Assembly (NCBI GenBank): GCA_964385825.1
Contig: CAYLPX010000004.1
Span: 4,986-68,985 of the forward strand
Direction of reading: 5' to 3'
From: an uncultured Candidatus Saccharibacteria bacterium
GTDB taxonomy: Bacteria; Patescibacteriota; Minisyncoccia; Phycocordibacterales; JAKFXT01
DNA: 64,000 nucleotides
The notes below the pieces were generated by a model, which saw only the letters and a list, made by a program, of their open reading frames with translations, searched no databases and was not told the DNA's origin. Both the position numbers and the translations under genes were made by a program. This document shows positions 10,936 to 59,319 of this stretch, piece after piece. Each line of letters opens with the position of its first letter. Positions within the stretch are counted from its first letter, which is position 1.

Positions 10936-11084
10936 TGTACTTGTTGACCCAGTTAGGCATAATAAACGCGAGGTATTTTTATTGGACGAAATAGTACCCG
11001 AAAGGGGCGGTCTGCCAACTATCCGTTCAATCCTCGCGATTGCCTATAGCTGGGTCAACCAGACCGTCCCTTTCGGGTTTTTAT

Positions 11085-32545: not shown

Positions 32546-32633
32546 GGAGACGTGGCTGAGTGGTCGAAAGCACCTCACTGCTAACGAGGCGTCCCTTTAA
32601 AGGACCGTGGGTTCGAATCCCACCGTCTCCGCA
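32546..32633 (+). tRNA. tRNA-Ser (anticodon GCU), long variable arm
   Basis: GGAGACG TG GCTGAGTGGTCGAAAGC A CCTCA CTGCTAA CGAGG CGTCCCTTTAAAGGACC GTGGG TTCGAAT CCCAC CGTCTCC G. Type-II variable arm. CCA not encoded. Confidence 0.85.
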
Positions 32634-36152: not shown

Positions 36153-36360
36153 CTGAATAGCCCGTGAGGGCAGGACCTAACCCATCAAGAACAACTTGGC
36201 GGCACGGTCTAGTTAGTCGATCAAGCATAAAAAACCCGTCATGGGGTTGCTTGATCGCCGTATGGGGAAACCTGTACGAGAGGGTTCGCCCTCTACCCGT
36301 GGCGGGCTTTTTGTGTCTCGCTACAGGTTTTATCAGGTTGATCAGCGATCAAGCCAACCT

Positions 36361-44811: not shown

Positions 44812-46971
44812 ATGGAAGGAGCGACTCCATTAAGTAAAGTCCTGCGACTTTCTGAAGATCAAAAGAAGGCTCTTACTAGGCTCAATCTAAATACCGTAGA
44901 AGACCTGCTCTATCATTTCCCCGCTCGCTATAGTCAGTATGTGGAAAGTAGCAATATCGCCGAGGCACCGCTTGGAGAAAAAGGCAGCTGGTATGGCGTG
45001 ATACGTGACCTCAAACTAGGGAGTACTTTCAAACGGCATCTGCGCAAGGCTGAAGGGTCACTTGAAACCGTGAACGGTAAGGTCCGGCTCATCTGGTTCA
45101 ACCAGCCCTACTTAGCCAAAATGTTTAAAGAAGGCGACACCGTCCGTGTGTCCGGTAAACTCCAAGAGTACAATGGTGCGCGGAGTATTAGTAATCCTGA
45201 AATAGAAACCGTTCCTGAATTACCCCCTGAAGAAAAAGGTTCACTTTTTGGAAAGAAAAGTAATGAGTACTTTGCTTTCCCTATCTACCCTGAAAGTCGC
45301 GGTATTACTTCCCGTTTTTTCTATCACCATATCCAAAAGATTTTAAAAAGTGGTGTAGTAGACACCCTTCACGATCCTATACCAACTGATATTTTAGAAA
45401 CCTACAATCTTCCAACTCTTAAAACCGCACTCATCTGGGTCCACAGTCCCAAAAAAGAAAAGGATGCTGAAGTGGCGCGCAAGCGGTTTGCTTTTGAGCA
45501 AGTTTTCTACATTCAACTCCAAAAACAAAAAGATAGGCAACTGTATGAACAGAGTAGTGGGTTCAAACTAGATGCCCCCAAGGCAGTTATAGACACCTTC
45601 CTCACCCGCTTCCCCTTCTCTCCTACCAATGCACAAAAGAATGCTATCGCGAATATTTTAACTGATATGAAAAGTGGTAACCCCATGTCGCGTTTACTTG
45701 AGGGAGATGTGGGGTCGGGCAAGACAGCAGTAGCTGCCACGACGGCGTACGCCGTCGTGGCAGGGGTCCCAGAAAAAGATAGCCGCCTTTCACGCCTCCA
45801 AGTAGCTTACATGGCACCAACTGAACTTCTGGCCACACAACATTTTGAATCCTTCATTGAATACTTCAAACATTTGCCTATCAACATTGGGCTACTTACA
45901 GGAAGTGGCTGCCGCAAATTCCCCTCCAAAGTAGATCCGAGTGGCCATACCGCTGTTTCGCGTGCACAGTTACTAAAGTGGGTCAAAGAAGGTGATATTT
46001 CTATCCTTATCGGTACACACGCACTCATTCAAAAAAGTGTGCATTTCAAAAACCTCGCCTACATCATCATAGATGAACAACATCGCTTCGGGGTGAAACA
46101 ACGAAAAGAATTAACTCGCAAAGACGATCGTCTCCCCCATTTATTATCCATGACGGCCACCCCTATTCCGAGAACCCTCGCGCTTACCATTTTCGGCGAC
46201 CTAGATATTACCCTGCTCGATGAAATGCCGGCCGGTAGAAAGAAGATTGATACCCGCATTGTGCCGCCGACAAAACGTAAAGAAATGTATGACCATATTA
46301 AACGTGAATTGAAAGAAGGACGGCAAGCATACATCATTTGCCCACGCATAGATGAACCGGATCCCGAAAAAGAATTGGCCATTCAAGCCAAATCAGTGAA
46401 GGCTGAAGCTATCCGCCTCAAAAGAGATATTTTCCCTGAAGCTCGCATTGAAATACTGCATAGCAAAATGAAACCGAAGGAGAAAGACGAGATCATGATC
46501 GCGTTTAAAGCGCACAAAATAGATATTCTCGTTGCTACCTCAGTGGTTGAAGTGGGGGTGAACGTGCCGAATGCGACGAATATTGTTATTGAAGGCGCAG
46601 AGCGTTTCGGCTTAGCCCAACTCCACCAACTGCGCGGTCGTGTTATCCGTAGCAACCACCAAGCCTACTGCTTCTTACTTAGTGAAAGTGCTGGGGATAA
46701 GACTATGGAACGCCTCAAGGCCCTTGTAGAGGCTGAAAATGGCTTTAAACTAGCCGAACTAGACTTAACTATGCGCGGCACAGGAGGCCTTCTTGATAGC
46801 AAGCAATGGGGTATGTCTGATATCGCCATGGAAGCCATTAAAAATATCAAAATGGTAGAAGCCGCCCGCACTGAAGCCTCCCGTATCATAAAGACTGACC
46901 CAGACCTTACAAACTACCCCGCTCTTAAGGCTACCCTTACTCAGAAACTCACGCATTTGCACTTTGAGTAA
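44812..46971 (+). CDS. recG: ATP-dependent DNA helicase RecG
   Basis: Wedge-domain N-terminus, Walker A GDVGSGKT, DEQHRFG motif II, TATPIPRT, and helicase C-terminal motifs. 719 aa. Confidence 0.85.
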   Translation: MEGATPLSKVLRLSEDQKKALTRLNLNTVEDLLYHFPARYSQYVESSNIAEAPLGEKGSWYGVIRDLKLGSTFKRHLRKAEGSLETVNGKVRLIWFNQPYLAKMFKEGDTVRVSGKLQEYNGARSISNPEIETVPELPPEEKGSLFGKKSNEYFAFPIYPESRGITSRFFYHHIQKILKSGVVDTLHDPIPTDILETYNLPTLKTALIWVHSPKKEKDAEVARKRFAFEQVFYIQLQKQKDRQLYEQSSGFKLDAPKAVIDTFLTRFPFSPTNAQKNAIANILTDMKSGNPMSRLLEGDVGSGKTAVAATTAYAVVAGVPEKDSRLSRLQVAYMAPTELLATQHFESFIEYFKHLPINIGLLTGSGCRKFPSKVDPSGHTAVSRAQLLKWVKEGDISILIGTHALIQKSVHFKNLAYIIIDEQHRFGVKQRKELTRKDDRLPHLLSMTATPIPRTLALTIFGDLDITLLDEMPAGRKKIDTRIVPPTKRKEMYDHIKRELKEGRQAYIICPRIDEPDPEKELAIQAKSVKAEAIRLKRDIFPEARIEILHSKMKPKEKDEIMIAFKAHKIDILVATSVVEVGVNVPNATNIVIEGAERFGLAQLHQLRGRVIRSNHQAYCFLLSESAGDKTMERLKALVEAENGFKLAELDLTMRGTGGLLDSKQWGMSDIAMEAIKNIKMVEAARTEASRIIKTDPDLTNYPALKATLTQKLTHLHFE

Positions 46972-46994: not shown

Positions 46995-47067
46995 GCGGGT
47001 ATAGCTCAGTTGGTAGAGCAGGCGTCTTATACACGCCCGGTCCTTGGTTCGAGTCCAAGTACCCGCA
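46995..47067 (+). tRNA. tRNA with UAU anticodon (predicted tRNA-Ile, rare isoacceptor)
   Basis: GCGGGTA TA GCTC AGTTGGT AGAGC A GGCGT CTTATAC ACGCC CGGTC CTTGG TTCGAGT CCAAG TACCCGC A. The anticodon loop is CU-UAU-AC. CCA not encoded. Confidence 0.65.
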
Positions 47068-47214
47068 CAAAGGATTTATCATCCATATACATAGACACCG
47101 AAGTCTCTAGTCAAATCCAGTACATACGATGCATAATTCTGTATTACTACTAATTAAATAGACCTCAATCAAACCTCGAGTAATAAAGTAGAGTTATTTT
47201 TAAATTTAAAAAAT

Positions 47215-48714
47215 ATGAAAAAAAGTCTTTTTTTTGAAGAAAATTTAGCAAAAGGAGGGGTTAAAAAATTTATTGAAACAGAAAAAAACGGTTCTTATAC
47301 CTACCTTGAAACAGAAATTTACACCAATCAAATTGCAAATTTTCTAAAAAACGAGGGTTTAAAAAAAGGTGATCGAATTTGTATCATAGCAACAAAATCT
47401 CCAGCAACAATCTTTTACTATCTAGCAATACTAAAAATAGGGGGGGTGTACACTCCTATTAGTCCAGATAGTAATATAGGAGAAATAGATTACATACTTG
47501 AAGATACTGAAGCAAGTGCTCTCATCTTTCCCTCTTCAGCAAAATCTTTTATTTTAAATAATTCCCGAAATACAAATACTGTAAAATATTTAGAACAAAT
47601 TAACCCCGGTTTAAAATTAGCTTTTTCATTTAGTCCCTTCTTTAAAAATAAAACTCCTACCCCCTCGGATACAGCACTTATTCTCTACACTTCAGGTACC
47701 ACAGGCAAACCTAAGGGGGTAATCCTTGATTATGCGCAAATAACCAGATTAGAATCATTAATAACAGTCTGGAAAGTTAGAGAGACTGATAAGATATTTT
47801 TAGCGCTTCAACTCAGCCATATTCATGGGATAATGCTAATCAATATTAGTCTTCATGCTAGATGTGGTCTTTTTCTTTATCCCAACCCTTTTTCCCAAGA
47901 TACGATAAAAATATTACAAAAAGTTTCGATCGTTTCCTTAAGCCCAACGCATTACAAAATTTTAAATGAATTATTTAAACAAACACCGATTAGAAATCCT
48001 ATCCCCCGGCTTTTTATTAATGGATCAAATAGCCTCCCCAACAAAACAGCTGAGGATTTCAAGATATTTACCAAAAAAAATATTGTTAATAGATATGGCT
48101 CGACAGAGCTAGGAATTCATACAACAAACATTCCTGATAAAGAAGTACTAGGAAGTTGTGGTAAACCATTATCGGATCTTTTAATGCGCATCGTGGACGA
48201 TAATGGAAAAATACTTCCTCCAGGAGTAATCGGAAACATTGAAGTAAAAAGTCCTCATATGTTTTCAGGATACTGGAGAAACAAAGAAAAAACCTCACAG
48301 TCAATAACACCTGATGGTTTTTTTAAAACTGGAGACATTGGCAAATTTGATAAAAATAAAAATTTATTTATTACAAGCCGAGCTATAGAAGTGATTACCG
48401 GGGAATTCGGCTTTAAAATTTACCCTAAAGAAATTGAATCCTATATTGAAGAGATAGAAGGACTTGAAGAAATCGCAGTAATTGGGATTCCTTCAAAAGA
48501 CAATTACGAAAAAATCTCTCTTTTTGTTTCAATCAAAAAAGGTTTTGAAAAAGTACTTCCTCCAGAAGTAATTAAAAATCTTATTGCGAAAAAGGTCTCT
48601 CGTAAAAAAATCCCTTCATGTGTACACATCCTAGATTCACTACCAAAAAATAAAGCTGGTAAAATTACAAAGGAAGAATTGAAAAAAATCCACTTAACTT
48701 TTCCGCTTCATTAA
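47215..48714 (+). CDS. AMP-dependent synthetase/ligase (acyl-/aryl-CoA ligase or adenylating enzyme)
   Basis: LYTSGTTGKPKGV AMP-binding motif, plus TGD motif FKTGDIG. 499 aa. Very AT-rich codon usage. Confidence 0.75.
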   Translation: MKKSLFFEENLAKGGVKKFIETEKNGSYTYLETEIYTNQIANFLKNEGLKKGDRICIIATKSPATIFYYLAILKIGGVYTPISPDSNIGEIDYILEDTEASALIFPSSAKSFILNNSRNTNTVKYLEQINPGLKLAFSFSPFFKNKTPTPSDTALILYTSGTTGKPKGVILDYAQITRLESLITVWKVRETDKIFLALQLSHIHGIMLINISLHARCGLFLYPNPFSQDTIKILQKVSIVSLSPTHYKILNELFKQTPIRNPIPRLFINGSNSLPNKTAEDFKIFTKKNIVNRYGSTELGIHTTNIPDKEVLGSCGKPLSDLLMRIVDDNGKILPPGVIGNIEVKSPHMFSGYWRNKEKTSQSITPDGFFKTGDIGKFDKNKNLFITSRAIEVITGEFGFKIYPKEIESYIEEIEGLEEIAVIGIPSKDNYEKISLFVSIKKGFEKVLPPEVIKNLIAKKVSRKKIPSCVHILDSLPKNKAGKITKEELKKIHLTFPLH

Positions 48715-48765
48715 ATAACTTAAAATTAAATTTCAAAATTTCTTGCAAATTTTTCAATAAAAAAA

Positions 48766-48787
48766 GAGGGGGATTGCTCCCCCTCAC
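48766..48787. terminator. rho-independent terminator for the GC-rich minus-strand gene
   Basis: GAGGGGG-ATTGC-TCCCCCTC stem with a run of 7 A on the plus strand (a T-run on the minus strand), immediately downstream of the 48801..49403 stop. Confidence 0.7.
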
Positions 48788-48800
48788 TTGTCGCGCCCGG

Positions 48801-49403
48801 CTATTCACCAGCCGAAGCGCTTTTCATCGGCGGCCAGACGTTGGTCTCGACGACTTCGTAGGTCTGGACCGGCCCGAACCGCGACACGCACTTGCCGGGC
48901 CGCTTCAGTTCCGGCACATACCAGCAGGTAACCGGGCCGCGGTCGTAGCCGTTGTCGAAGTTCACGACGACCTTCATGGCCGAGAACTTGCCGATGGACA
49001 GCACGACTTCCTCGACGCCCACAACCTCGGTTGCAACCTTGAGCTTCCCGGAAGCAGACCCGCGGTAGAACATCACCTCGTCGTTCTTCCACTTGTTCCC
49101 CGCAACGAGGGGGAACCGGAAGTACGGAATGTACGGGGAATACTGGGTGAAACTTTGCCCAGCCGCCCCCTTCATTTCCGCAGTGTTGGAAACGGGGTTC
49201 CATTCATTCGTGAGCACGTGACGATACCCGCCGTAGAGGATGTCGATCTTGGAGTCGTTGACCCCAGTCACCACGACCTCCTTGAAGGAATCGCCGACCT
49301 TGATTTTCCAGGCGTCACCCACCTGCACTTCAGGCCGGTTGAAATCTGCGGCCATTGCCACCCCCCCGACAAGGAGGAGCGCCAAAACAAAGCTCTTGAA
49401 CAT
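48801..49403 (-). CDS. secreted protein of unknown function encoded by a strongly GC-rich (~60%+) insert in an AT-rich region
   Basis: Signal peptide MFKSFVLALLLVGGVAMAADF. GC3-rich codons (GCC, GGC, CCG). The flanks return abruptly to AT-rich sequence. Confidence 0.6.
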   Translation of the reverse strand: MFKSFVLALLLVGGVAMAADFNRPEVQVGDAWKIKVGDSFKEVVVTGVNDSKIDILYGGYRHVLTNEWNPVSNTAEMKGAAGQSFTQYSPYIPYFRFPLVAGNKWKNDEVMFYRGSASGKLKVATEVVGVEEVVLSIGKFSAMKVVVNFDNGYDRGPVTCWYVPELKRPGKCVSRFGPVQTYEVVETNVWPPMKSASAGE

Positions 49404-49536
49404 GTCAATCTCCCTCCCCACTTAAGGGGTTAATACTACATTGAACTCCAACTTAAAGTATACATATATTTATAAAAAAAGCAAGTCCATGTGAATAAAG
49501 ATTGCGAAGCTTTACACCCTAAGATATCATGGATGC

Positions 49537-50436
49537 ATGTTAGTAAAATTCATAGCACACGCTGGAATAGCAATAGAAGAAGACGGATTTTTACTCCTCA
49601 TTGACCCCTGGTTTTTTGATAGTACCCCAGAAAATCCAATAATAGAAAGCATAGGTGGGGGATTTAAAACAATTGATTTTCAAATCCCAAAAACAACTGA
49701 AGATATTACCCTTTACAAACCTGATGCCATCCTTGTATCCCATTTCCATCCCCACCATTCCCCTGTACGTGATATTACGGAACTATTTACAAATACGTTG
49801 GATAGTAACAAGGAAATCCTAATCGGGTACCCTACGCCCAACGATGAAATGGAGCGTATGCTCATGAAAAATATTCCCTCTTCGGTGAAGAAAAAGGCTG
49901 TACGCCCCAATGATGAGATCCTCATCGGACCGTTTAAAATTACTGCCAAAAAACACACTGTCCCCTTTCATACTAGTTGGTACATCACCTCAAAAACTGG
50001 TTCCGTGTTGCATATCGCTGATGGGAGAATAAATAAAGATATTATGGACCGACGAATAGATGATACGTGGATAGAATTACAAGGCTTAAAACCATCGATT
50101 CTCTTTATAAGTAGCGGAGGTCATAGTCAACTTCAAAAAAATAAGGAGGGGGAACGAGTGGTAGTAGAAGCTGGTATTTTTACCGCAGTTGAAGCAGCGA
50201 AAGTAACAAGATTAATTAACCCTACCGCTGTAGCCCTAATAGGAATGTACAATCACAGTATTTGGAAAAATAGAGTTGAATACATACGACAGTCCTCTCA
50301 GGTTGAGGAGGAGTTTTTGTGGGCACTAACTTATCTTGACCCAAACATTAAGAAGCTTTTTATCAACCCGGGTTTTAGTATTGGATTATCAGAAAAGGAT
50401 CTAGAAGGAAAATGCAATTATTTCTCAAAAAACTAA
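49537..50436 (+). CDS. MBL-fold-like metallo-hydrolase (tentative)
   Basis: ILVSHFHPHHS resembles the HxHxDH metal-binding motif. 299 aa. Confidence 0.35.
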   Translation: MLVKFIAHAGIAIEEDGFLLLIDPWFFDSTPENPIIESIGGGFKTIDFQIPKTTEDITLYKPDAILVSHFHPHHSPVRDITELFTNTLDSNKEILIGYPTPNDEMERMLMKNIPSSVKKKAVRPNDEILIGPFKITAKKHTVPFHTSWYITSKTGSVLHIADGRINKDIMDRRIDDTWIELQGLKPSILFISSGGHSQLQKNKEGERVVVEAGIFTAVEAAKVTRLINPTAVALIGMYNHSIWKNRVEYIRQSSQVEEEFLWALTYLDPNIKKLFINPGFSIGLSEKDLEGKCNYFSKN

Positions 50437-50963
50437 AACTTAAGCTAATTTTATTTTTCTTAAAAGTACACCAAACCGACAAAATTGCACATAGAAAGAG
50501 CAGTTTTTTAGAGCATTTACTAGGTACTTATAACCTACTGGTAAGCTGGGAACTGGAGGAAAGTATTTGTCTTGCTGGTCTATTTCATAGTATTTATGGT
50601 ACAAAATTTTTCACTCACGCAACAGTAAGACAAGAGTTCCGTTTTTTGATTAAAATCTTGATCGGTGGAAAAGCTGAAAAACTTGCCTACCTTTTTTCTG
50701 TTTCAGAAAGACCTAGTGGATTTTTAAAAGGACTCGAAACTGGCTTTTTAGAAAATAGAATAACCCATAAACTTGAACAATTTCCACCTGAAATTATCCA
50801 TAATTTAGTTGCTATTGAGTGTGCGAACCTAATCGACCAAGGAGGTGGAGTTGAATTCCTAAAACAGATTATTCAAAAATTTTCAGCATTAAATAGCGGC
50901 TTCCTTAATGATAAAATTTTTAACACAATTAATGCTTTTTTAAACCAAAAACTAACTAATTGA
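50412..50963 (+). CDS. hypothetical protein (183 aa)
   Basis: His-rich helical protein. No firm assignment. Confidence 0.35.
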   Translation: MQLFLKKLKLKLILFFLKVHQTDKIAHRKSSFLEHLLGTYNLLVSWELEESICLAGLFHSIYGTKFFTHATVRQEFRFLIKILIGGKAEKLAYLFSVSERPSGFLKGLETGFLENRITHKLEQFPPEIIHNLVAIECANLIDQGGGVEFLKQIIQKFSALNSGFLNDKIFNTINAFLNQKLTN

Positions 50964-52532
50964 GTATCGATCCTTAGATAATATACCGTTCTTATCAAAA
51001 AATTTCTTTAATGCATCAACTAACTTCCAGTACTGAAGATTGCCCTCATTTCTTAGTCCAACATTCCTGATATCCCCCCTATTTAAGTAAAAATTCTTGA
51101 CTTCCCCCTCTTTTACTAGTGCCTCATAACACTCAAAGGCTTTCTTAGCTTCAGCATCATTCTTCTTATTAAAAGCGAAAAAGATCGTTGCTTTAAAATA
51201 GGTACTACGATAGCCTGTAAACTGAAAATTAAACGGAAATCCGTACTGTAAACAAATTTTCTCCATACTTTGTATCGCCTCAAAAGCTATTTCTGTATTT
51301 GCCGAAAAGGTACATGAGAAAAAAAGAAAACCGAGATTTTCATCTATATCAGGATTTAGATTTGACCGAAGAAAATTATTCCAAGAATCTGAAGAGTAAT
51401 CGTCTCTCACCCTAGATGAAAACACTACTTTGTTAGTCTCTCGTATGGGGAACCCCATGGCAAGCCTAAGTGACCCTAATAAAAAAATATATTTTTCTTT
51501 CAAAATAAATGGGAGCGGAAATCTAGCAGAACTCAGAATATTCAAATTTTTTTCTGAAAAGAAAAATAATGGTAACTCACTAATACTTTTAAATTTACTT
51601 TTTAGAACCTTCTCTGCCGCCCCCACTAGGACTGAATTAGCTGAAATAACTCCGACCACAAGCCATTTCCCCTTAGCGTCAGCAGTATAGAGGTTCGAAA
51701 AATAGTCCTTTTTAGCTTTTACTCGTTGCCTTCTACTCACTAATCTATCATCCGAGAAGATTTTTAAATAAACCAAAATATGAGGTAACTCCTCTAGGGA
51801 TTCCCTAATTTTAAAAATAACTTTCTTCAAATCTTTTCGTGAATCAAATTCGAAAGAAAATATTCTGCTTTTTTCAGTTTTTTTACTAAGCAATAATGTA
51901 GCATTTAAAACTATCCCAAAGTTACTCTGCATAAAGAGTCCGTCGAAATAGGGACCCAGTTTCCACTTAGAAGGAAGATTTGGTGAGTTACTTTCAAAAA
52001 TTTCTCCATTACCCAAAACAACGCGAAGGGAACAAACCGACTCAAAATGCTCCATATCAACGGATGATCCCATCCCATACTCAAGAAAATTACCTATAAT
52101 GCTACACGTCCCATGTGCCCCCGTTGTTGGAGTACTAAAGTTAAGATCCCTTTTTGCTAAAAAATCTGCGAGTAAATTTTGCGTCACCCCTGGCCCAACT
52201 GAAATCAGTCCCGTATCTTCATCAAGGATTTTAATGTCGAGCAACTGTGATAAATCCAAAATCACAGAATTTTGGCTTGTTGGCACGGCACTGCCATACC
52301 CCCAATTTTTTCCTGTACTAATAGTATAAAGAGAAATATGGTAACGATTCGCGATAGCTACAATAGATACAACCTGCTCTTCGCTCTTTGGTCTTAATGC
52401 TAAAAGAATTTCTTTTTTGATCCCCAAAGTTGAATTGCCATATTTATTTTGAGCAGTTACAGAGTCCAAAACACCCTCATTACCCAAAAGAAGCTTAAAC
52501 TCTGAAAGAGCCTGGTTGAAGCCCTCTTTCAT
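50952..52532 (-). CDS. FAD-binding PCMH-type oxidoreductase (FAD_binding_4 family)
   Basis: N-terminal FAD-binding domain pattern (...PKSEEQVVSIVAIANRYHISLYTISTGKNWGYGSA...). 526 aa. Confidence 0.55.
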   Translation of the reverse strand: MKEGFNQALSEFKLLLGNEGVLDSVTAQNKYGNSTLGIKKEILLALRPKSEEQVVSIVAIANRYHISLYTISTGKNWGYGSAVPTSQNSVILDLSQLLDIKILDEDTGLISVGPGVTQNLLADFLAKRDLNFSTPTTGAHGTCSIIGNFLEYGMGSSVDMEHFESVCSLRVVLGNGEIFESNSPNLPSKWKLGPYFDGLFMQSNFGIVLNATLLLSKKTEKSRIFSFEFDSRKDLKKVIFKIRESLEELPHILVYLKIFSDDRLVSRRQRVKAKKDYFSNLYTADAKGKWLVVGVISANSVLVGAAEKVLKSKFKSISELPLFFFSEKNLNILSSARFPLPFILKEKYIFLLGSLRLAMGFPIRETNKVVFSSRVRDDYSSDSWNNFLRSNLNPDIDENLGFLFFSCTFSANTEIAFEAIQSMEKICLQYGFPFNFQFTGYRSTYFKATIFFAFNKKNDAEAKKAFECYEALVKEGEVKNFYLNRGDIRNVGLRNEGNLQYWKLVDALKKFFDKNGILSKDRYSIS

Positions 52533-52541
52533 ACAAATAAC

Positions 52542-53624
52542 CTAAAAATTTTGTCCAATGGTCTGAAGATATTTCTTGAAATCAGGTGAAACTTTAGCCA
52601 AAATAAATACTTGCTGCTTTACAGGATAAGTATCAGGTTGCTTAAGTAAAGATTGGTAATAATTTTTAAGTGTATCGGAACTAATAGCCTCCTCAGTACT
52701 ATAGGGCTTTAGTATTTGAACAATATCATTTACCCTATCCTCTCCAAAATTTTTCTTAACGAAAGTAGCGTAGTAAAACCTAATTCGATACAAATTTTTA
52801 ACACCATACACACTTACAGCATATTTTTCCCCCTCTGATAAGGCCAATTTATAAGCATCCTCCTGCTCGGCGAGAGTATAGTTCTTTAATATCTTGGCTA
52901 CATTCCCGATACCAATGGCCCTATACATATACATCTCAATCATTCGAGAATTTTCATATATTTTATCCTTAAGCAATCCATTACCATCAACTATAGTTTT
53001 GTTGAGCTCATTTGCAAAGGCAATTTTATCAATACTTTTAGGAAGAGAATCACTTATGAAAAGATGGCTTTGAGTATAAACAATTGAAAACTTAGCGAGA
53101 GCATTCGGATAGAGCTCATCAGAATATTTCCAAAGTCCGATAGCAAATACTCGGGAATTAAAAGGCTCGCCTAATTTCGGAAAGTATGTTGAGTATGGTG
53201 CTTCATTAAAATTCTCGCGAATAAATTCTTCACTACTAAAAGCCAGTAAATCTGCCAAATCATCTAGCACAATAGCTCTAGCAAGAGGTGGATTTTTAAG
53301 ATCACCTATAAGGTCCTTATAAATTTTAACTGCTTCAGCTCTATCGGAACCTTCATTGCGAGCAAAAAGCTGGTAAGCAATCATGGCCTTAGCCCGAATG
53401 TTATCCATTAGGCTCAGTTTATCTACGAGCTTTTCATAGGTAGCAATCGTCTTTGAACGATCACCTGAATTATAAGCATCGAGCGCCTCTTTTCTAGCTT
53501 GTGTAATTTCAGCCTTTTTTGAATCTGTACCAGATTTGAAAAAAGTCAATTTATCTCTAAACATAAAAGTCCCCAGTATTAAAATCAATACAAAAATTAA
53601 ACCGAAAGTTTTTCTTAAATTCAT
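52542..53624 (-). CDS. hypothetical membrane-anchored helical-repeat protein
   Basis: N-terminal TM. TPR-like helical content. Confidence 0.35.
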   Translation of the reverse strand: MNLRKTFGLIFVLILILGTFMFRDKLTFFKSGTDSKKAEITQARKEALDAYNSGDRSKTIATYEKLVDKLSLMDNIRAKAMIAYQLFARNEGSDRAEAVKIYKDLIGDLKNPPLARAIVLDDLADLLAFSSEEFIRENFNEAPYSTYFPKLGEPFNSRVFAIGLWKYSDELYPNALAKFSIVYTQSHLFISDSLPKSIDKIAFANELNKTIVDGNGLLKDKIYENSRMIEMYMYRAIGIGNVAKILKNYTLAEQEDAYKLALSEGEKYAVSVYGVKNLYRIRFYYATFVKKNFGEDRVNDIVQILKPYSTEEAISSDTLKNYYQSLLKQPDTYPVKQQVFILAKVSPDFKKYLQTIGQNF

Positions 53625-53664
53625 AAATCAATTAAAATACTAAGGAACTAATTATCGCAAAATA

Positions 53665-53913
53665 CTAGCAGTCACTCCCACCTGGGTCTGGGTCTGGACA
53701 AGATGACCCACACGGGTCAGGGAATGGTGATGGGCCGCCAGGTACATCTGCAAATGCAGTTGGAACGGTCAGCGCATCTCTAATACTGAGACCCTTTTTT
53801 TGACTCTTAAGATTATCTGACTGGTTTTCCTCACCCTTTTGAAAGAAATTGATAAAAACCATAGCTAAGGTTAGGCCAAAAATATAGGTGAATTTAAATA
53901 TTTTTTTAAACAT
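53665..53913 (-). CDS. candidate RiPP precursor peptide (Cys/Ser/Gly/Pro/Asp-rich C-terminal core)
   Basis: 82 aa with a hydrophobic N-terminus and a C-terminal ...PGGPSPFPDPCGSSCPDPDPGGSDC. It lies directly downstream of ycaO on the same strand. Confidence 0.5.
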   Translation of the reverse strand: MFKKIFKFTYIFGLTLAMVFINFFQKGEENQSDNLKSQKKGLSIRDALTVPTAFADVPGGPSPFPDPCGSSCPDPDPGGSDC

Positions 53914-54013
53914 ATTCTTTACTTATTGAACTCATTTTACACCTCGACTCTTGTAAAAACAAGACCACTAATGTTGATAACAAAAAAACGGGTGACTTAA
54001 ATACTGTGCTAAT

Positions 54014-55585
54014 TTATGGGAATGGGTGTGGTAGCTTATTTATTAAATTTTCACACCCTGATGCGTCCTGACCCAACTCTTCCCACAGTCGTGGATGAGT
54101 TAACGGAGCATGTACTTCCTTTAAATACAGAGGGATGAGCGTAGGGATTATAACCCTAACAACATGATACCCCAACGCATCCAAAATTTTATTTTTTACT
54201 TCATATACATATATATCACTCTCACGATTCTGAGATCTCAGAATATATAAAACATGCTCTAACTCGCTCTTTGAATCCCCAAAAGACCTTTCTTCACCTA
54301 CTAGATCGACCTCTTTTCCTGAGATAAAAAAATTAATGTTTGAAGAAAAAGTTCCAGGCTCAGCCCAAAGTCTTTGTCTATTTAAATGATCAACTGAAAT
54401 GTCAAAAAATGGTTTGTAGTCCTGGGGTAGTTGAAACTTATTTTTGAAACCAACAGTTCGGTACCATTTTCTAACAGAAAGTGCTTCTACAACTGCCTTA
54501 TGAATCGCCTCCTGCTTATTCCAGCCACATCCTCCACCCATTGCAACTGCGACTCCATTAAGCGAAGTATCTAAAATTACAACAATAAAAGAGGGTACTT
54601 GCAGGTTAGTTGTCACATCCATAATCTCTACTTGAAGGCCGTAGCGTTTGCAATTTTCCAAAATCCTTTTCAAATTTTGGGCCGTTAGTGATTTGTGACT
54701 TATCCTAGGTGGAGTCTTAGTTTGCATCCAATACCAAAGAAATGAATCCCGCTGTATAACCTCATAAGCACCACTTAAAACTGCTTCCTCATAAGTAAAA
54801 TGCCCACTTGCTCCGTTTGTATTTGACTCTCGTATGAGCGGCTCCATACCCTCTCTTTTATAAGTCCAGAAAACTAATTGAGCAGGAATTAAAATCTTCT
54901 TCTTTGTCGCCAGAGAGTATCCTTCCACCCAACCAAAAGGACTATGTTCGTCGGAGACAAAATGTTTAAATTCTTTTTTCTGTATGTCAGAAAAGTTGTT
55001 AAGTATTTTGGGATTTAAAACATTTTTACCCTGCAGATTTAATTCCTTAAATGATCCATGTATTAATTTATTTCTTTTATATACTAGTAAAAAATACCTC
55101 TCCAAAAACTCACCTAATGCCTTTGATACTGAAATATCTGGATCATCAAAATGAGAGGAACATAAAACAGGTAAGTCCTTAGCGTACCCATCAGTAACTA
55201 CCTTTAATTGGAAAAGATTAAAGCCATAAAGTCTTGGCTCATCATTTAAATTTTCTCGACAAAAAAAGTGTGGGTCGCTAATTAACTGATTACTATGGAG
55301 ATAATTTAATACGGGCTGCCAATAGTAAAGGTTAGGGTAATGCGGATTATACGCAAATGAATACATGTTTCCTAATCTAAAAAAACTTAAGAAATACTCT
55401 TTAAATATCTTTACCATTTTTTCAGAAAAAGTAAGTGGTTGTTTAAACCTTCCTCGTCGTCCATTAAGTGACTCATTGAGTAGATGATCCGCCCTAAAAA
55501 AACCAATTTCATTGGTTAAAAAAAACATTTGACCATTTCTATCTTCTTTTTTTAATTCTGAACTCATATCTTTACCCAACAACAA
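54014..55585 (-). CDS. ycaO: YcaO-domain protein (ATP-dependent cyclodehydratase/amide-activating enzyme) with a ~160-aa N-terminal extension
   Basis: SKALGEFLERYF (ATP-binding E-x-x-E-R) and ESNTNGASGHFTYEEAVLSGAYEVIQRDSF, matching the conserved YcaO core. Confidence 0.75.
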   Translation of the reverse strand: MLLGKDMSSELKKEDRNGQMFFLTNEIGFFRADHLLNESLNGRRGRFKQPLTFSEKMVKIFKEYFLSFFRLGNMYSFAYNPHYPNLYYWQPVLNYLHSNQLISDPHFFCRENLNDEPRLYGFNLFQLKVVTDGYAKDLPVLCSSHFDDPDISVSKALGEFLERYFLLVYKRNKLIHGSFKELNLQGKNVLNPKILNNFSDIQKKEFKHFVSDEHSPFGWVEGYSLATKKKILIPAQLVFWTYKREGMEPLIRESNTNGASGHFTYEEAVLSGAYEVIQRDSFLWYWMQTKTPPRISHKSLTAQNLKRILENCKRYGLQVEIMDVTTNLQVPSFIVVILDTSLNGVAVAMGGGCGWNKQEAIHKAVVEALSVRKWYRTVGFKNKFQLPQDYKPFFDISVDHLNRQRLWAEPGTFSSNINFFISGKEVDLVGEERSFGDSKSELEHVLYILRSQNRESDIYVYEVKNKILDALGYHVVRVIIPTLIPLYLKEVHAPLTHPRLWEELGQDASGCENLINKLPHPFP

Positions 55586-56309
55586 GTGTATAGACTAAAG
55601 ACTCGCCAACACCGTCTATATCAAGTATTTCATCTTCTACCATGACATCCTCAGTTGCTGCCAGAGCGCAGCAGTTGAGCCCCAGTGCCTTTGAATTTAA
55701 ATAAAAACCCTGGCCGACATGCCCCGCCTCAATCAACACCATACGGTAGCCTCGTTCGCCATATTTTAATTGATTTCGTTCAAAAGTTGCTGTGATAAAA
55801 AAAATTAAGGAACCTCTTTCAATCCAAGAAACTCCTAAATATTTTGAAATTTCCGCCTTCTCAAAATCCCGCTCCCATAGAACTGTTGCTCTATGATTTT
55901 CTACATCATAATGATAAAGTCCTGGTGCTATATCGGTATCAATAGTCTCCGTTACTAAAAAATAGACTTCTAGAGGATAACGTGCCCCCCCAGAAGGGTA
56001 TGCTCGGTGATTCATCCCATTTACAAATGAAGTAATACCTGCACTATACTCCAAAAGGATGGAAAGTTGGTTTAATGTTATTTTTTTGCCATTAATTATC
56101 CTACTTGTAACCCTCTCTCTTATTGCATCAAACATATTAAAGGCGGGGTTTATTTTTAACAAATTTACCTGTCTAAACCTTGGATACTTTTTATAATAGA
56201 CAGTTCTCCATTCTTCAGGCCAATCCCGAAAATCTACGCTAATAGGGGGGTGTCCCCTACCCTTATCTTTTGAAATCTTGTGGAAAAAAGTAGAAAAAAG
56301 TTGATTCAT
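55572..56309 (-). CDS. SagB/ThcOx-type FMN-dependent dehydrogenase (nitroreductase superfamily)
   Basis: RAYPSGGARYPLEVY signature. 14-nt overlap with ycaO. Confidence 0.7.
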   Translation of the reverse strand: MNQLFSTFFHKISKDKGRGHPPISVDFRDWPEEWRTVYYKKYPRFRQVNLLKINPAFNMFDAIRERVTSRIINGKKITLNQLSILLEYSAGITSFVNGMNHRAYPSGGARYPLEVYFLVTETIDTDIAPGLYHYDVENHRATVLWERDFEKAEISKYLGVSWIERGSLIFFITATFERNQLKYGERGYRMVLIEAGHVGQGFYLNSKALGLNCCALAATEDVMVEDEILDIDGVGESLVYTLVVG

Positions 56310-56338
56310 TTTTAGTACAACATCTAATCAAAGGTTGG

Positions 56339-57124
56339 TTACCAAGTTGGATTAACATGAAACCACTGGACTATAGTTACTCTTGGTTTTTTATTACCCT
56401 GGAAAGCATGGAATGACTTAGGGCTAATGTGGAAACCAAAAAGTCTATTCTGTTTTGGATCTACAACTTCACATGGCTCAGAATTTTTTGAAAGGTATAT
56501 ACCTGTCCCTCCTCCATCCCCTTCCTGCCAATCATCACCAAAAAGATACATAATAATGGCAATAACCCTCCGAGCACCAAAACTTGCGCCCATCTGATTA
56601 TTTTCTTCTTTTGTGCGAGTGACTATAGGAACTACAGAATTTGGGAGGCTGTCGCCCTTAAAAAAATACTTTACGGCATAATCATGATGCACAAATCCGG
56701 TTCTGTCTCCCGATGGGTGATAGTGTATTGCCAAATCAGTAGCAAAACCAGTTGATTGATTAAAAATCTTTGAAATAAATTGATTCCAAGTAACTGAAAA
56801 GAAGAAATTCAAAACTTGATGTTCATCAGCCCTCGGGACATACAGATAACCATCATATGCAAATTCTCCAGTAAGACTAAAGGGGTGTAGTCGTGAAAGA
56901 TCTGCCTGTTCACCAAAACCACGGTCAATAACAGATTTCACATATGCCTCTATATCGCTATAAAAACTGGGGGTAAAAAAATTATCAACTACTATATGGG
57001 GAAACGGTTCTTGGTTAGGGACTACTATTTGTGGAGTAACATACTCCTCAAGGCGGATACTCTCTTTAAGTTCTGTGCTTTTTTTCTCAAGATTATTTTT
57101 GATTTTATCTAGAAAGGTAATCAT
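56339..57124 (-). CDS. putative 2OG-Fe(II) oxygenase-like tailoring enzyme (paralog A)
   Basis: PFPHIVVDNFF N-terminal motif and His/Asp clusters (HYHPSGD...HHD). Paralog of 58407..59276. Confidence 0.45.
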   Translation of the reverse strand: MITFLDKIKNNLEKKSTELKESIRLEEYVTPQIVVPNQEPFPHIVVDNFFTPSFYSDIEAYVKSVIDRGFGEQADLSRLHPFSLTGEFAYDGYLYVPRADEHQVLNFFFSVTWNQFISKIFNQSTGFATDLAIHYHPSGDRTGFVHHDYAVKYFFKGDSLPNSVVPIVTRTKEENNQMGASFGARRVIAIIMYLFGDDWQEGDGGGTGIYLSKNSEPCEVVDPKQNRLFGFHISPKSFHAFQGNKKPRVTIVQWFHVNPTW

Positions 57125-57168
57125 GTTGCTATAGTACCAAGACCAATACCATTCGCAAGTTTTGAAAC

Positions 57169-57873
57169 TCAGTAGCTTTTCTCTATTGAAAAATTAGAGT
57201 CACTTTCATCAACCATACTCCAAAAAGTGTCAACGGTTTTTTGTGCTGTTTTTTCATCCCTAATAGAACCAGGGGCCAGCACCTTGGTGGGAATTTTATA
57301 CGTATCAAAAAAGAAGTCGTGTGCATATGCGGCTAGGATATGAAGTGCAGCCTTAGCGGCACTATAACTAGCCAACTCTTTTCGTGCTGTTTTTCCAGTA
57401 CCAGCGCCACTACCAATAAATATAATCTTTTTATTATTTTTGGCATTCTCCTCACTATTATTGAAGAAAATTGGAGCGCACTGTTTTGAGAATTCGATGG
57501 GTACATATACATCAAGCAGCATTTCATACAAAAAAGATTCTTTCTTTAGATCTTGAATAGAGGCAAAACCGTTGTAATATGCTCCCAGCACCAAAACATC
57601 CACCCGACCTAAAACCTTACCCAAATAACTTACAGTTTTCCCAAGATCTTTACCTATATCGAAAAAAATATTAACTACACCCTCCCCGAGCAAGGGGGTG
57701 CGCCTTGAAATATTTACCAAAAGTACATCATTGGGTTTATGCTTTAAAAAAAGCCTGCCTAAAGCTCCACCAGCCCCGGTCATAAGAACAACCTTCCTGT
57801 ATCCATCAATATCAATTGATTTCAGGGGATTCTTTGTTGAAAAAGATGGCCATTTCATGCTTTTACTATACAC
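57169..57873 (-). CDS. short-chain dehydrogenase/reductase (SDR)
   Basis: TGAGGALG Rossmann motif. YSAAKAAL catalytic YxxxK. Confidence 0.7.
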   Translation of the reverse strand: MYSKSMKWPSFSTKNPLKSIDIDGYRKVVLMTGAGGALGRLFLKHKPNDVLLVNISRRTPLLGEGVVNIFFDIGKDLGKTVSYLGKVLGRVDVLVLGAYYNGFASIQDLKKESFLYEMLLDVYVPIEFSKQCAPIFFNNSEENAKNNKKIIFIGSGAGTGKTARKELASYSAAKAALHILAAYAHDFFFDTYKIPTKVLAPGSIRDEKTAQKTVDTFWSMVDESDSNFSIEKSY

Positions 57874-57920
57874 CTTTCACCCTCTCGCAAGTAATAAAAA
57901 TGATGTTATACTAATTTCAT

Positions 57921-58403
57921 ATGGAAAATACTATTGTACAAAACACCCCAAAAAAGTGGTTAATTATAGGCAAAAAAATAGCTCCTTTTTTCTTTACAGC
58001 GCTTATCACAGCTTTGGTAATTTATCTTACCCCGCTTAAACACATAGCGCTCATAGAACCAACTATCAGAGACATTGATGCGCAAAAAATCTACACCGAA
58101 ATGACGGCTAATCCCGACAAATATATTTTTATTGACGTCCGACCTGTTGCAGCTTATACCAAACTCCACGCACAAGGTGCCATGAATATTGAGCTATACA
58201 AAATGTATTATGAAAGAAAGAATCTTCCTAAGCATGGCAAAAAGATAGTACTTATCTGTAGTGGAGGCGTTGCTTCTGGCGTAGCGTTTAGTTATCTAGA
58301 ACACTATGGTTTTTTTAATATTTACCGAGTTGAGGGAGGAATAGAAAATTGGGTTAAAGCAGGACTACCTGTTGTAAGTGCTGCACAAAATCAGAGTTCA
58401 TAG
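57921..58403 (+). CDS. membrane-anchored rhodanese-domain sulfurtransferase
   Basis: FIDVRP...IVLICSGGVASG, with the active-site Cys in a CSGG loop. 160 aa. Confidence 0.65.
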   Translation: MENTIVQNTPKKWLIIGKKIAPFFFTALITALVIYLTPLKHIALIEPTIRDIDAQKIYTEMTANPDKYIFIDVRPVAAYTKLHAQGAMNIELYKMYYERKNLPKHGKKIVLICSGGVASGVAFSYLEHYGFFNIYRVEGGIENWVKAGLPVVSAAQNQSS

Positions 58404-58406
58404 CCC

Positions 58407-59276
58407 CTACCGATCGTTAAAAGTATATCCAATATTTTTTGAAGGGTCTCCGTAGAACCACTGTGTTACAGTTGAGCGTGGGGTGTTGTTTTCTTCAACA
58501 GCATGATACCCCCCTAAAGATACTTCGAAAGCAAGGATTCTATTTCGTAGCGGCTCTATCTTCTTAATAGGAGTTGATTTTTGCATTTTATCATAAAGTT
58601 CTTCTCCATTCCCTCGCGCCACCTCTTTGGTAGGACTAGAAATTATTTTTTTTATATCGCCAATTGGTGCCTTGTATAACAAAGTTCTTCCAGCATCTTC
58701 TTCTTTCCAATCATCATTAAAAATGTACATTACCAGAGCGATAATTCTAACCCCTCCCACTAATGAAATATCTTGGTTGTTAGTCTCAAGCAACTTTTTC
58801 TTTTTATAAATAACACCATTTGATAGACGGCTGCTCTCTAAAAAAGAGTCGTGAATAAAATCTGTATGAGCATGACTAGTTTTATCTCCCACCTTATGAT
58901 GATGAAGTGCAAATAAGGTCAGTAAATTTGTTTGTTTTTTAAAAATTTCGGCAAAATAATTATTCCACCCAACCGAATAAAAAAGGTCTAAAATTGAATT
59001 TTCACTAGGAGCCGGTGAATAGCCTTCTACGGTAAACTTCCCCTTGAAGCCTTCTAGGTTTGTAAATGAACCATTCTCATATTTCTGTTTATGGAATTTC
59101 TCTAATTGTGCTAGAAAATCCTCCTTAAAAAAATTGTCCACGACTATGTGCGGAAATGGCTCGTTAATTACCTCAATTGGCTGCTTGTTGATATATTCAA
59201 ATATATCGAAATCCTCAGCAAGAAGAGCTGCTTTCCTTTGCAACTTATATTTGAGTTCTGAAAAATCAGGAAACAT
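58407..59276 (-). CDS. putative 2OG-Fe(II) oxygenase-like tailoring enzyme (paralog B)
   Basis: EPFPHIVVDNFF, HHHKVGD...HTD. Aligns with 56339..57124. Confidence 0.45.
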   Translation of the reverse strand: MFPDFSELKYKLQRKAALLAEDFDIFEYINKQPIEVINEPFPHIVVDNFFKEDFLAQLEKFHKQKYENGSFTNLEGFKGKFTVEGYSPAPSENSILDLFYSVGWNNYFAEIFKKQTNLLTLFALHHHKVGDKTSHAHTDFIHDSFLESSRLSNGVIYKKKKLLETNNQDISLVGGVRIIALVMYIFNDDWKEEDAGRTLLYKAPIGDIKKIISSPTKEVARGNGEELYDKMQKSTPIKKIEPLRNRILAFEVSLGGYHAVEENNTPRSTVTQWFYGDPSKNIGYTFNDR

Positions 59277-59319
59277 GTCTCCAGTATATCAAACTCCAAC
59301 CGCCTTTAACTAAGACGGG

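Follow-up and report, generated by a model that had tools for sequence, protein, structure and literature searches.

The window, the 64-kb stretch of DNA that was analyzed as a whole, changes in composition just beyond RecG (44812-46971). A tRNA-Ile with the anticodon UAU (46995..47068, plus strand; ARAGORN, Rfam and composition) marks the boundary between the core, with ~42-47% GC, and an island of 33-37% GC that follows RecG and the tRNA and reaches to ~59 kb. The gene that is the subject of this analysis is nested in the island on the minus strand (48801..49403) and encodes 200 aa plus the stop. An AMP-binding acyl/amino-acid ligase (47215..48714, plus strand; PF00501 at 6e-66, NCBIfam) with a GC3 of 0.23 is convergent with it. 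On its other side are plus-strand genes for an MBL-fold protein (49537-50436) and a DUF6817 protein (50412-50963), both assigned by Pfam, which their homologs and contexts identify as a conserved gene pair in this type of cluster.

Minus-strand genes further along encode a FAD_binding_4 oxidase (50952-52532), a 360-aa membrane protein (52542-53624), an 82-aa Cys/Ser-rich peptide that ends in PDPCGSSCPDPDPGGSDC and may be a precursor (53665-53913), a SagD-type YcaO protein (54014-55585; Pfam YcaO at 5.5e-53), a SagB dehydrogenase (55572-56309; TIGR03605), two 2OG-Fe(II) oxygenases (56339-57124 and 58407-59276) and an SDR (57169-57873); a rhodanese is encoded on the plus strand (57921-58403). 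The membrane protein and the peptide were taken from the ORF list, and the oxidase, oxygenases, SDR and rhodanese were assigned by Pfam/NCBIfam. The SagB protein scores 131 bits against its TIGR03605 model, above the cut-off of 78.4. The gene content points to a peptide-antibiotic-type cluster, TOMM-type and RiPP-like, in the low-GC island. With the TOMM/azoline-type RiPP clusters (SagB-SagD/YcaO; microcin B17/streptolysin S type) it has in common the SagD-type YcaO, the SagB dehydrogenase and the short Cys/Ser-rich ORF that resembles a precursor, whereas the putatively exported YmcC-like protein described below, the MBL-DUF6817 pair, the FAD_binding_4 oxidase and the 2OG oxygenases are non-canonical, and the YcaO protein falls under the TIGR03604 cut-off (199 versus 219 bits).

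Diverged versions of the cluster, with MBL proteins 31-62% identical, occur in other metagenomic contigs, some of them named Patescibacteria or Sungbacteria, and the related cluster in L018 lies beside the same tRNA-Ile(UAU). No homologs of the MBL protein were found in genome contigs. The LigA protein encoded in the window is 64-69% identical to proteins from Candidatus Lloydbacteria, Taylorbacteria, Parcubacteria, Paceibacterota and 'Patescibacteria group', and these matches identify the host as a Paceibacteria-type CPR bacterium, one of the ultra-small Patescibacteria.

Composition and expression signals of the GC-rich gene

GC was scanned at two scales. It is ~59% at 48766-49432 and 29-37% in the flanks; in 200-nt windows it rises from 0.29-0.33 (48500-48799) to 0.57-0.63 (48800-49399) and falls to 0.36-0.37 (49400-49699). 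A 400-nt scan of the whole 64 kb gave a median of 0.42 (sd 0.047), with values above 0.53 solely in windows starting at 48701-49051, which correspond to 48701-49450. The minus-strand gene has a GC of 0.589 and a GC1/2/3 of 0.57/0.39/0.80, compared with a GC3 of 0.23-0.35 for the four neighboring genes. Its codon choice is of the high-GC type (AAG, TTC, AAC, ATC, GTC/GTG and CGS, with AGR absent). These measurements bear out a preliminary description of the locus, which had reported an abrupt switch from AT-rich to GC-rich and back around one minus-strand gene with GC3-rich codons.

The interval assigned there to the feature, 48774-49433, is that of a 219-aa plus-strand ORF antisense to the gene. 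The GC1 of 0.79 in this ORF mirrors the true GC3, and because the ORF is interrupted by two stops in the diverged ortholog at locus L002 (see below), it is an artefact of high GC. The minus-strand frame 48801..49403, also named in that description, is therefore the coding frame; codon-position GC, conservation against L002, the AF2 model and Foldseek were used in its assignment together with the ORF list. A GTG start at 49421 was considered. The ATG at 49403 is preferred, with its Shine-Dalgarno-like site 6 nt upstream, and the gene callers and the L002 ortholog concur.

The Shine-Dalgarno-like element GGGGAGGGAG was read from the sequence at 49410..49419 (minus strand), and a small hairpin is possible between its first GGGG and the CCCC at 49426-49429. 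Codons 1-18 (49350..49403, minus strand) encode what appears by inspection to be a Sec-type leader. The N terminus is MFKSFVLALLLVGGVAMA followed by AD, with K3, the hydrophobic segment FVLALLLVGGV and the AXA cleavage motif AMA directly ahead of AD. Relatives in the family likewise begin with such leaders, and residues 1-20 of the AF2 model have a pLDDT of 61-64.

A predicted intrinsic terminator (48756..48785, minus strand) lies at the 3' end of the gene. It consists of the hairpin GAGGGGGA-GCAA-UCCCCCUC at 48766-48785 and a U7 run at 48759-48765; the 8-bp stem has 6 G-C pairs and a 4-nt loop, and the U7 comes next, in keeping with the hairpin plus U-run definition. The RNA fold has a centroid energy of -16.9 kcal/mol, with a z-score for the 61-nt context of just -1.4, and the segment is 98-100% identical at L002. 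The scan and the fold agree with the GC-rich hairpin and T-run noted in the preliminary description. At the other end, the composition reverts to AT-rich at ~49433, within an intergenic region shared with the divergent MBL-fold gene (49420..49536; delimited by composition) that is 85-88% identical to L002. Sigma-70-like matches in 49420-49536 were found on the plus strand only, with none on the strand of the GC-rich gene, whose promoter must be located in this region.

Family and predicted fold of the putatively exported protein

The window protein matches 0 Pfam families at E ≤ 0.01 and has no NCBIfam or PHROG-type match. A word-indexed search of 5.8 billion proteins returned P0001 (99.5% identical) and P0002 (69%) only. 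When 1.84 billion cluster representatives were searched exhaustively with a profile, 563 relatives reached E ≤ 1e-3, the best of those that are not orthologs at 8e-16; some of these relatives are separate exported proteins of ~200 aa, and the others are C-terminal domains within larger proteins. PF21347 (DUF3108_like) gives weak matches in 50 of the 88 members of alignment A2 (E ≤ 0.01; best 3.3e-9). The window protein did not reach the Pfam gathering score of PF21347/PF11306, and when ten top relatives were scanned singly, P0003 alone attained the 27-bit cut-off.

Comparison of the A2 profile with PDB sequences gave 4fvs_A (5.6e-7) and 3fzx_A (4.2e-5), both across the C-terminal 60-70 residues, which argues for profile-level homology to solved YmcC-fold proteins. 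The AF2 model computed from the family alignment is all-beta with a pLDDT of 90.8 and a pTM of 0.84. Foldseek placed the model closest to the E. coli lipoprotein YmcC (2in5; E 3.3e-5, TM 0.53), followed by 4fvs and 3fzx, with ranges of E 3e-5 to 2e-4 and TM 0.42-0.53 for the three structures; MucB, RseB and LolA are lower matches with weak scores. The model thus predicts a YmcC-like all-beta barrel. The window protein is a new, distant member of the YmcC/DUF3108-like family.

The likeness to the YmcC-fold/DUF3108-like proteins (2in5; 4fvs, BDI_3050; 3fzx, BF2203; PF21347/PF11306) consists of an all-beta half-barrel of ~180 aa behind a predicted signal peptide. Unlike YmcC, the window protein has no lipobox Cys and is therefore not a lipoprotein. 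It also differs from the YmcC-fold proteins in having its own pair of cysteines, Cys160 and Cys172, in giving no direct Pfam/NCBIfam match and in belonging to a CPR-type bacterium; CPR bacteria are not known to have an outer membrane. A Cys160-Cys172 disulfide is suggested because both residues are common to 23 of the 88 relatives.

The pre-protein would be exported by Sec and cleaved after AMA18. Folding of the 182-aa mature protein would yield a half-open, all-beta barrel similar to those of YmcC/DUF3108 (LolA-like) proteins, with the putative disulfide pinning it. Outside the cytoplasm the protein may bind or carry a ligand that is hydrophobic or amphipathic, for which the likeliest candidates would be the membrane-anchored modified peptide of the cluster, if the protein is linked to the cluster product, or an envelope lipid. 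Judged only from fold and neighborhood, the role is probably extracytoplasmic ligand binding. The proteins of the YmcC/DUF3108 fold family are without an established function (PMC4364669).

Authenticity and age of the locus

Twelve contigs encode precisely this 200-aa protein; they come from JGI, ENA and Logan assemblies and represent at least nine samples and three assembly pipelines. Among them are ENA ERZ4216102 NODE_40 (127,745 bp), contigs of seven JGI samples (3300045345/350/352/354/356/388, and 353, where one amino acid differs) and contigs of two Logan runs. Both composition junctions are 99.9-100% identical in the ten contigs aligned to window positions 48300-49900. Several contigs terminate at 48343-48403, which is inside the AMP-ligase gene and away from the junctions. 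A chimeric join had been one of the two explanations offered in the preliminary description. The abrupt composition switch, and nothing else, favors a high-GC fragment mis-assembled into an AT-rich contig; the recurrence of the exact protein and of both junctions across samples and pipelines, the position of the contig breaks and the same arrangement in a diverged lineage make such an error vanishingly improbable. The GC-rich gene is genuine and its junctions are authentic.

The diverged lineage is represented by L002, a 1,957-bp Logan contig from run SRR32910815. Its order is that of the window: the 3' end of the AMP ligase, the terminator, the GC-rich gene and the MBL-fold gene. Nucleotide identity is 82.6% overall and ~90% in the flanks. 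The L002 copy of the GC-rich gene has a GC3 of 0.79 between AT-rich flanks, and its product is 69% identical in amino acids. Identity along the locus is mosaic. The 3' end of the AMP ligase and the terminator are 93-98% identical (dS 0.30) and the MBL gene ~90% (dS 0.53, dN/dS 0.08). Within the GC-rich gene, codons 1-35, which include the putative signal-peptide part, are ~97% identical (dS 0.09), the part encoding aa 36-143 is 50-65% identical (dS 1.19, dN/dS 0.40) and the part encoding aa 144-200 is ~78% identical (dS 1.12, dN/dS 0.07). The whole-gene dN/dS is 0.31, and the divergence is biased to third positions. From its presence at the same site in L002, its divergence and its mosaic identity, it follows that the gene predates the split of the two lineages and is under purifying selection; the mosaic also points to past recombination at the locus.

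The other explanation in the preliminary description was a very recent transfer from a high-GC donor, and it had proposed a check for the gene in related bins. The related lineage L002 has the ortholog at the same site, at 69% amino acid identity only. The GC3 of 0.80 and the full high-GC codon usage do look 'fresh', as they would after a strain-level transfer that left too little time for amelioration. This explanation is very unlikely. The gene occupies the same locus in L002, where the genes on either side have a dS of 0.3-0.5, the two copies have a gene-body dS of ~1.1-1.2, and a near-identical gene is absent from all high-GC genomes sampled.

Origin and maintenance of the GC-rich composition

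The composition and codon usage of the gene deviate from the host genome in the manner of a horizontally acquired gene. The reading that is probably correct is an old, fixed single-gene horizontal acquisition from a high-GC lineage, in a Paceibacteria-type population, at the variable edge of the cluster next to the tRNA-Ile and under purifying selection. The donor would be of a high-GC type, and the acquisition would have taken place before the host lineage separated from its relative L002, in which the flanking genes are ~10% different at the nucleotide level. The gene appears to form its own expression unit, which comprises a Shine-Dalgarno-like site, the ATG start, a predicted Sec signal peptide and, at the 3' end, the intrinsic terminator. 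As a single event, such an acquisition by a symbiont with a reduced genome would be nothing out of the ordinary, if unusually clean. LolA/YmcC-like beta-barrel proteins are typical of double-membraned bacteria, and the acquisition would give a Paceibacterium such an exported protein within a peptide-modification cluster.

Members of the family were located in high-GC genomes. P0021 lies on the 63% GC contig L031, where its GC3 of 0.83 is similar to that of its neighbors; P0008 (L027, GC3 0.67) and P0004 (L029, GC3 0.62) lie on contigs of 56-58% GC, and P0011 is from an Azonexaceae MAG. Because family members are native to high-GC contigs such as L031, high-GC genomes able to donate such a gene exist. 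The foreign, high-GC origin put forward in the preliminary description finds support in these members and in the codon usage, but the donor itself was not found: among ~15 billion proteins there is no donor or close high-GC homolog, and the best non-ortholog is ~31% identical. The close homologs (100%, 99.5% and 69% identity) are all in the same or a related low-GC lineage, and all others are at ≤ ~31%. Nearest homologs in low-GC relatives had been named beforehand as an argument against recent transfer, and this was found in part, as the sole close homolog is in a related low-GC genome.

Compositional outliers also occur among the more distant relatives. P0013 (L028, 31% identical) has a GC3 of 0.85 versus 0.46-0.55 for its neighbors and shares the high-GC-type codon usage throughout with the window gene and the L002 copy. 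It adjoins a SagB-like gene homologous to that of the window (tblastx 2e-30) in the same type of cluster. P0043 (L030, 39.5% GC) has a GC3 of 0.60 versus ~0.35, and P0027 (L032) is a reverse outlier with 0.57 between genes at 0.87-0.93. A rough NJ tree places the window/L002 pair apart from a P0013/P0043 clade, a topology that fits more than one acquisition by CPR-type genomes.

Horizontal transfer and genomic islands are documented in Patescibacteria (PMC12455944). The window gene resembles tRNA-adjacent, horizontally acquired genomic islets, including those of Patescibacteria (PMC12455944), in that the GC and codon deviation is confined to one gene, which lies near a tRNA gene within an accessory cluster and has a terminator to itself. 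It differs from them in that it is nested in an oppositely atypical island, of lower GC than the core, in that its composition is stationary over a dS of >1 with no decay, and in the marks of mobility that were searched for. The island genes that were scanned gave no integrase or recombinase; the 3' end of the tRNA is not repeated, no other tRNA-derived direct repeat bounds the island, and flanking repeats and integron or other cassette signatures were limited to chance matches. An empty site, with the AMP ligase directly beside the MBL gene, was seen in no relative, which counts against acquisition and makes the insertion event itself a presumed one. The 64-kb window contains no second copy of the GC-rich segment, and a search with alignment A1 found no relatives in genome, metagenome and viral contigs. 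Two other processes were rejected. For hypervariation by a diversity-generating retroelement, the template copy is absent from the 64-kb window; gBGC at a recombination hot spot was deemed too little to explain a gene in which GC1, GC2 and codon-family choice have shifted as well.

The two alleles constitute a natural test of amelioration, as they are more than one synonymous substitution per site apart and both have a GC3 of ~0.8 in a background of 0.23-0.35. The window and L002 were compared at four-fold degenerate sites whose codons agree in the first two bases. Of 71 such sites in the GC-rich gene, 29 differ, and C<->G changes account for 16 of these; the MBL and AMP genes beside it differ at 41 of 116 sites, with a single C<->G change among the 41 (Fisher p=3.6e-7). 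Taken across the entire gene, GC4 lies at 0.75-0.80 in both alleles, and for codons 36-200, which make up the gene body, it lies at 0.77-0.86. The divergence built up under a GC-rich stationary regime, unlike the AT-biased spectrum of the host, and since the synonymous differences between the alleles are mostly C<->G, the GC-richness is being maintained. A simple model of an old transfer in slow decay fails to predict non-ameliorated GC at a dS of >1 with C<->G-dominated differences.

Two accounts of this maintenance were weighed. In one, the gene is a long-time resident whose GC-ending codons are kept by selection in situ, for example because they affect mRNA structure or stability, tune the kinetics with which an exported protein is translated or help to evade an A/U-specific nuclease; the composition would then be a maintained trait and not a relic. 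The excess of C<->G differences over the flanks and the persistence of GC4 at ~0.75-0.85 in both alleles argue for such selection, and the failure to sample a donor favors it. So does GC3 enrichment elsewhere, both in distant family members in other low-GC CPR-like contexts (0.85 in L028, 0.60 in L030) and in unrelated exported-protein genes of related clusters. Yet no mechanism is known for a gene-specific GC3 of 0.8 in a 33% GC context, and GC1, GC2 and the choice of codon families for Arg and Leu show shifts like those of a gene that evolved for long in a high-GC genome. The dS of the gene body is above, not below, that of the flanks, and the separation of the window gene from the P0013/P0043 clade in the rough NJ tree fits separate acquisitions. 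Selection in situ is an unlikely explanation.

The other account is repeated replacement of the allele, in which recombination with diverged GC-rich homologs from high-GC organisms would overwrite the gene body from time to time and so renew its composition, with the leader (codons 1-35) and the terminator as anchors. The mosaic against L002, in which a body at 50-78% identity lies between a conserved leader and a conserved terminator and AMP-ligase end, is the pattern that such replacement would leave, and the GC-stationary substitution spectrum agrees with it. A GC-rich pool of close homologs is nevertheless absent from every database searched, and just two alleles are available for comparison. 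Two paralogs in L025 provide a parallel: they share the N-terminal 51 aa alone (69% identity) and have unrelated bodies. Type IV pili are linked to DNA uptake, and type IV pilus machinery is encoded in the window (a PilB-like ATPase). Replacement of this kind is also unlikely. The mosaic identity and the conserved leader favor it, the absence of any sampled donor favors selection for GC-ending codons, and two alleles do not separate one from the other.

In other cluster lineages, small signal-peptide genes beside MBL/DUF6817 have a GC3 clearly above that of their neighbors. The genes of L006/L019 (165 aa; 0.88 versus ~0.45) and L026/L025 (~167 aa; 0.80 versus ~0.40, with a second paralog in L025 at 0.69) show the largest values. 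L018 has a rhodanese-like gene (120 aa; 0.63) and a 156-aa gene (0.56) among neighbors at 0.31-0.33. L020 encodes a 158-aa protein with a CxxC motif (0.64 versus 0.47) and L005 a lipoprotein (0.68 versus 0.51-0.63); the 144-aa gene of L003 (0.70 versus ~0.63) is not an outlier. Among the small GC-rich exported proteins of different cluster lineages no homology was detected save for two leader-sharing L025/L026 paralogs, and Pfam matched only two of them, to rhodanese in L018 and weakly to thioredoxin in L020.

The simplest reading of these genes is that the cluster edge is a hot spot for foreign genes, most environmental donors being GC-richer than these hosts. A more far-reaching reading is that Patescibacterial YcaO/SagB-MBL-DUF6817 clusters have a dedicated slot for exported-protein genes, in which high-GC coding is actively maintained by recurrent overwriting or by codon selection. 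Overwriting could draw on DNA from high-GC, possibly host, bacteria and be anchored on the conserved leader and terminator. Support comes from signal-peptide genes with raised GC3 that belong to unrelated families and adjoin the same conserved genes in at least six further lineages of the cluster (L006/L019, L026, L028, L020, L018 and L005), and from the C<->G-dominated divergence between the two window-type alleles. This reading is nonetheless improbable; if true, it would make the window gene one instance of a previously undescribed general rule and not a one-off transfer. Under the favored reading of a single old acquisition, the maintained GC-richness, with a substitution spectrum in both alleles unlike that of the flanks, and the recurrence in related clusters are the only aspects beyond routine. 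Recurrent compositional outliers beside the same conserved genes, if systematic, could indicate donor or host lineages of uncultured episymbionts, and could also indicate a cassette-like exchange of surface proteins tied to a RiPP-type product.

Composition of exported-protein genes in related loci

Small signal-peptide genes flank the conserved genes in diverged YcaO/SagB-MBL-DUF6817 clusters on metagenomic contigs, with GC3 values markedly above those of their neighbours. These genes lie at 4835-5332 in L006/L019 (L019 coordinates), 4713-5246 in L026, 6138-6737 in L025, 3625-4137 in L020, 7934-8296 and 8435-8941 in L018, and 2808-3338 in L005; L028 (1025-1621) and L030 (1022-1588), which are loci of distant relatives of the GC-rich protein, carry one each. 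The highest GC3 among them is 0.88, compared to 0.45 in the neighbours. The genes in the diverged clusters belong to unrelated families, and a 51-aa leader is the only part common to the two L025/L026 paralogs.

The reverse composition outlier occurs within the family of the GC-rich protein itself. In locus L032, the family member P0027 (478-1083) has a GC3 of 0.57 between flanking genes of 0.87-0.93, and the adjoining hydrolase (GC3 0.44) likewise sits between genes of GC3 0.87-0.93. The low GC3 of P0027 among GC3-rich genes means that the family seems to move in both directions between genomes of differing GC.

The TOMM-type island and its conserved pair

The TOMM-type cluster lies inside a low-GC (33-37%) island at 47100-59300 adjoining a tRNA-Ile with the anticodon UAU (46995-47068). 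The island encodes a SagD-type YcaO, SagB, an FAD oxidase, two 2OG oxygenases, an SDR, a rhodanese, an AMP ligase and the MBL + DUF6817 pair. A membrane-anchored, precursor-like peptide of 82 aa (53665-53913) has the C-terminal end PDPCGSSCPDPDPGGSDC. The related contigs L003, L026 and L006 encode similar peptides of 70, 87 and 103 aa, respectively. tRNA-Ile(UAU) is uncommon in bacteria, and its position beside RecG and the cluster is kept in two related lineages (window 46995-47068; L018 7601-7675).

The DUF6817 and MBL-fold genes are invariably neighbours, in varying order (window 49537-50963; L025 914-2308; L026 5443-6837; also P0207 and P0211), and in some lineages form a single fused protein of 464-493 aa. 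This constant adjacency and fusion implies that they are a functional unit.

A variable segment in the AMP ligase

AMP ligase identity to the diverged ortholog locus L002 changes from ~93% to ~55% at about 48400. The low-identity segment spans 48100-48400 (codons ~295-395), where synonymous sites are saturated relative to L002. Five independent contigs from the near-identical population end at 48343-48403. The identity drop together with these end points suggests a strain-variable, recombining segment, possibly the substrate-determining part of the enzyme. Only three SNPs separate ten near-identical contigs, at 49024 (L001), 49797 (L008) and 48659 (L009); one changes Val127 of the GC-rich protein to Gly.

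tRNA-associated features and LOOT RNA elsewhere

A 20-nt tRNA D-arm match, ATAGCTCAGTTGGTAGAGCA, on the minus strand at ~642-661 lies about 270 nt from tRNA-Thr. ARAGORN and Rfam call no tRNA at this site, and the match may be a tRNA remnant. Large serine recombinases at 11040-12695, beside tRNA-Asp/Met (12.7-13.1 kb), and at 32581-34341, beside tRNA-Ser (32546-32632), may mark integrated elements. A LOOT RNA (Rfam RF03000, 69.7 bits) at 36174-36294 is positioned between 186-aa and 179-aa ORFs and adjoins a defence-like helicase/methylase/AAA_15 block (36.8-43.4 kb).
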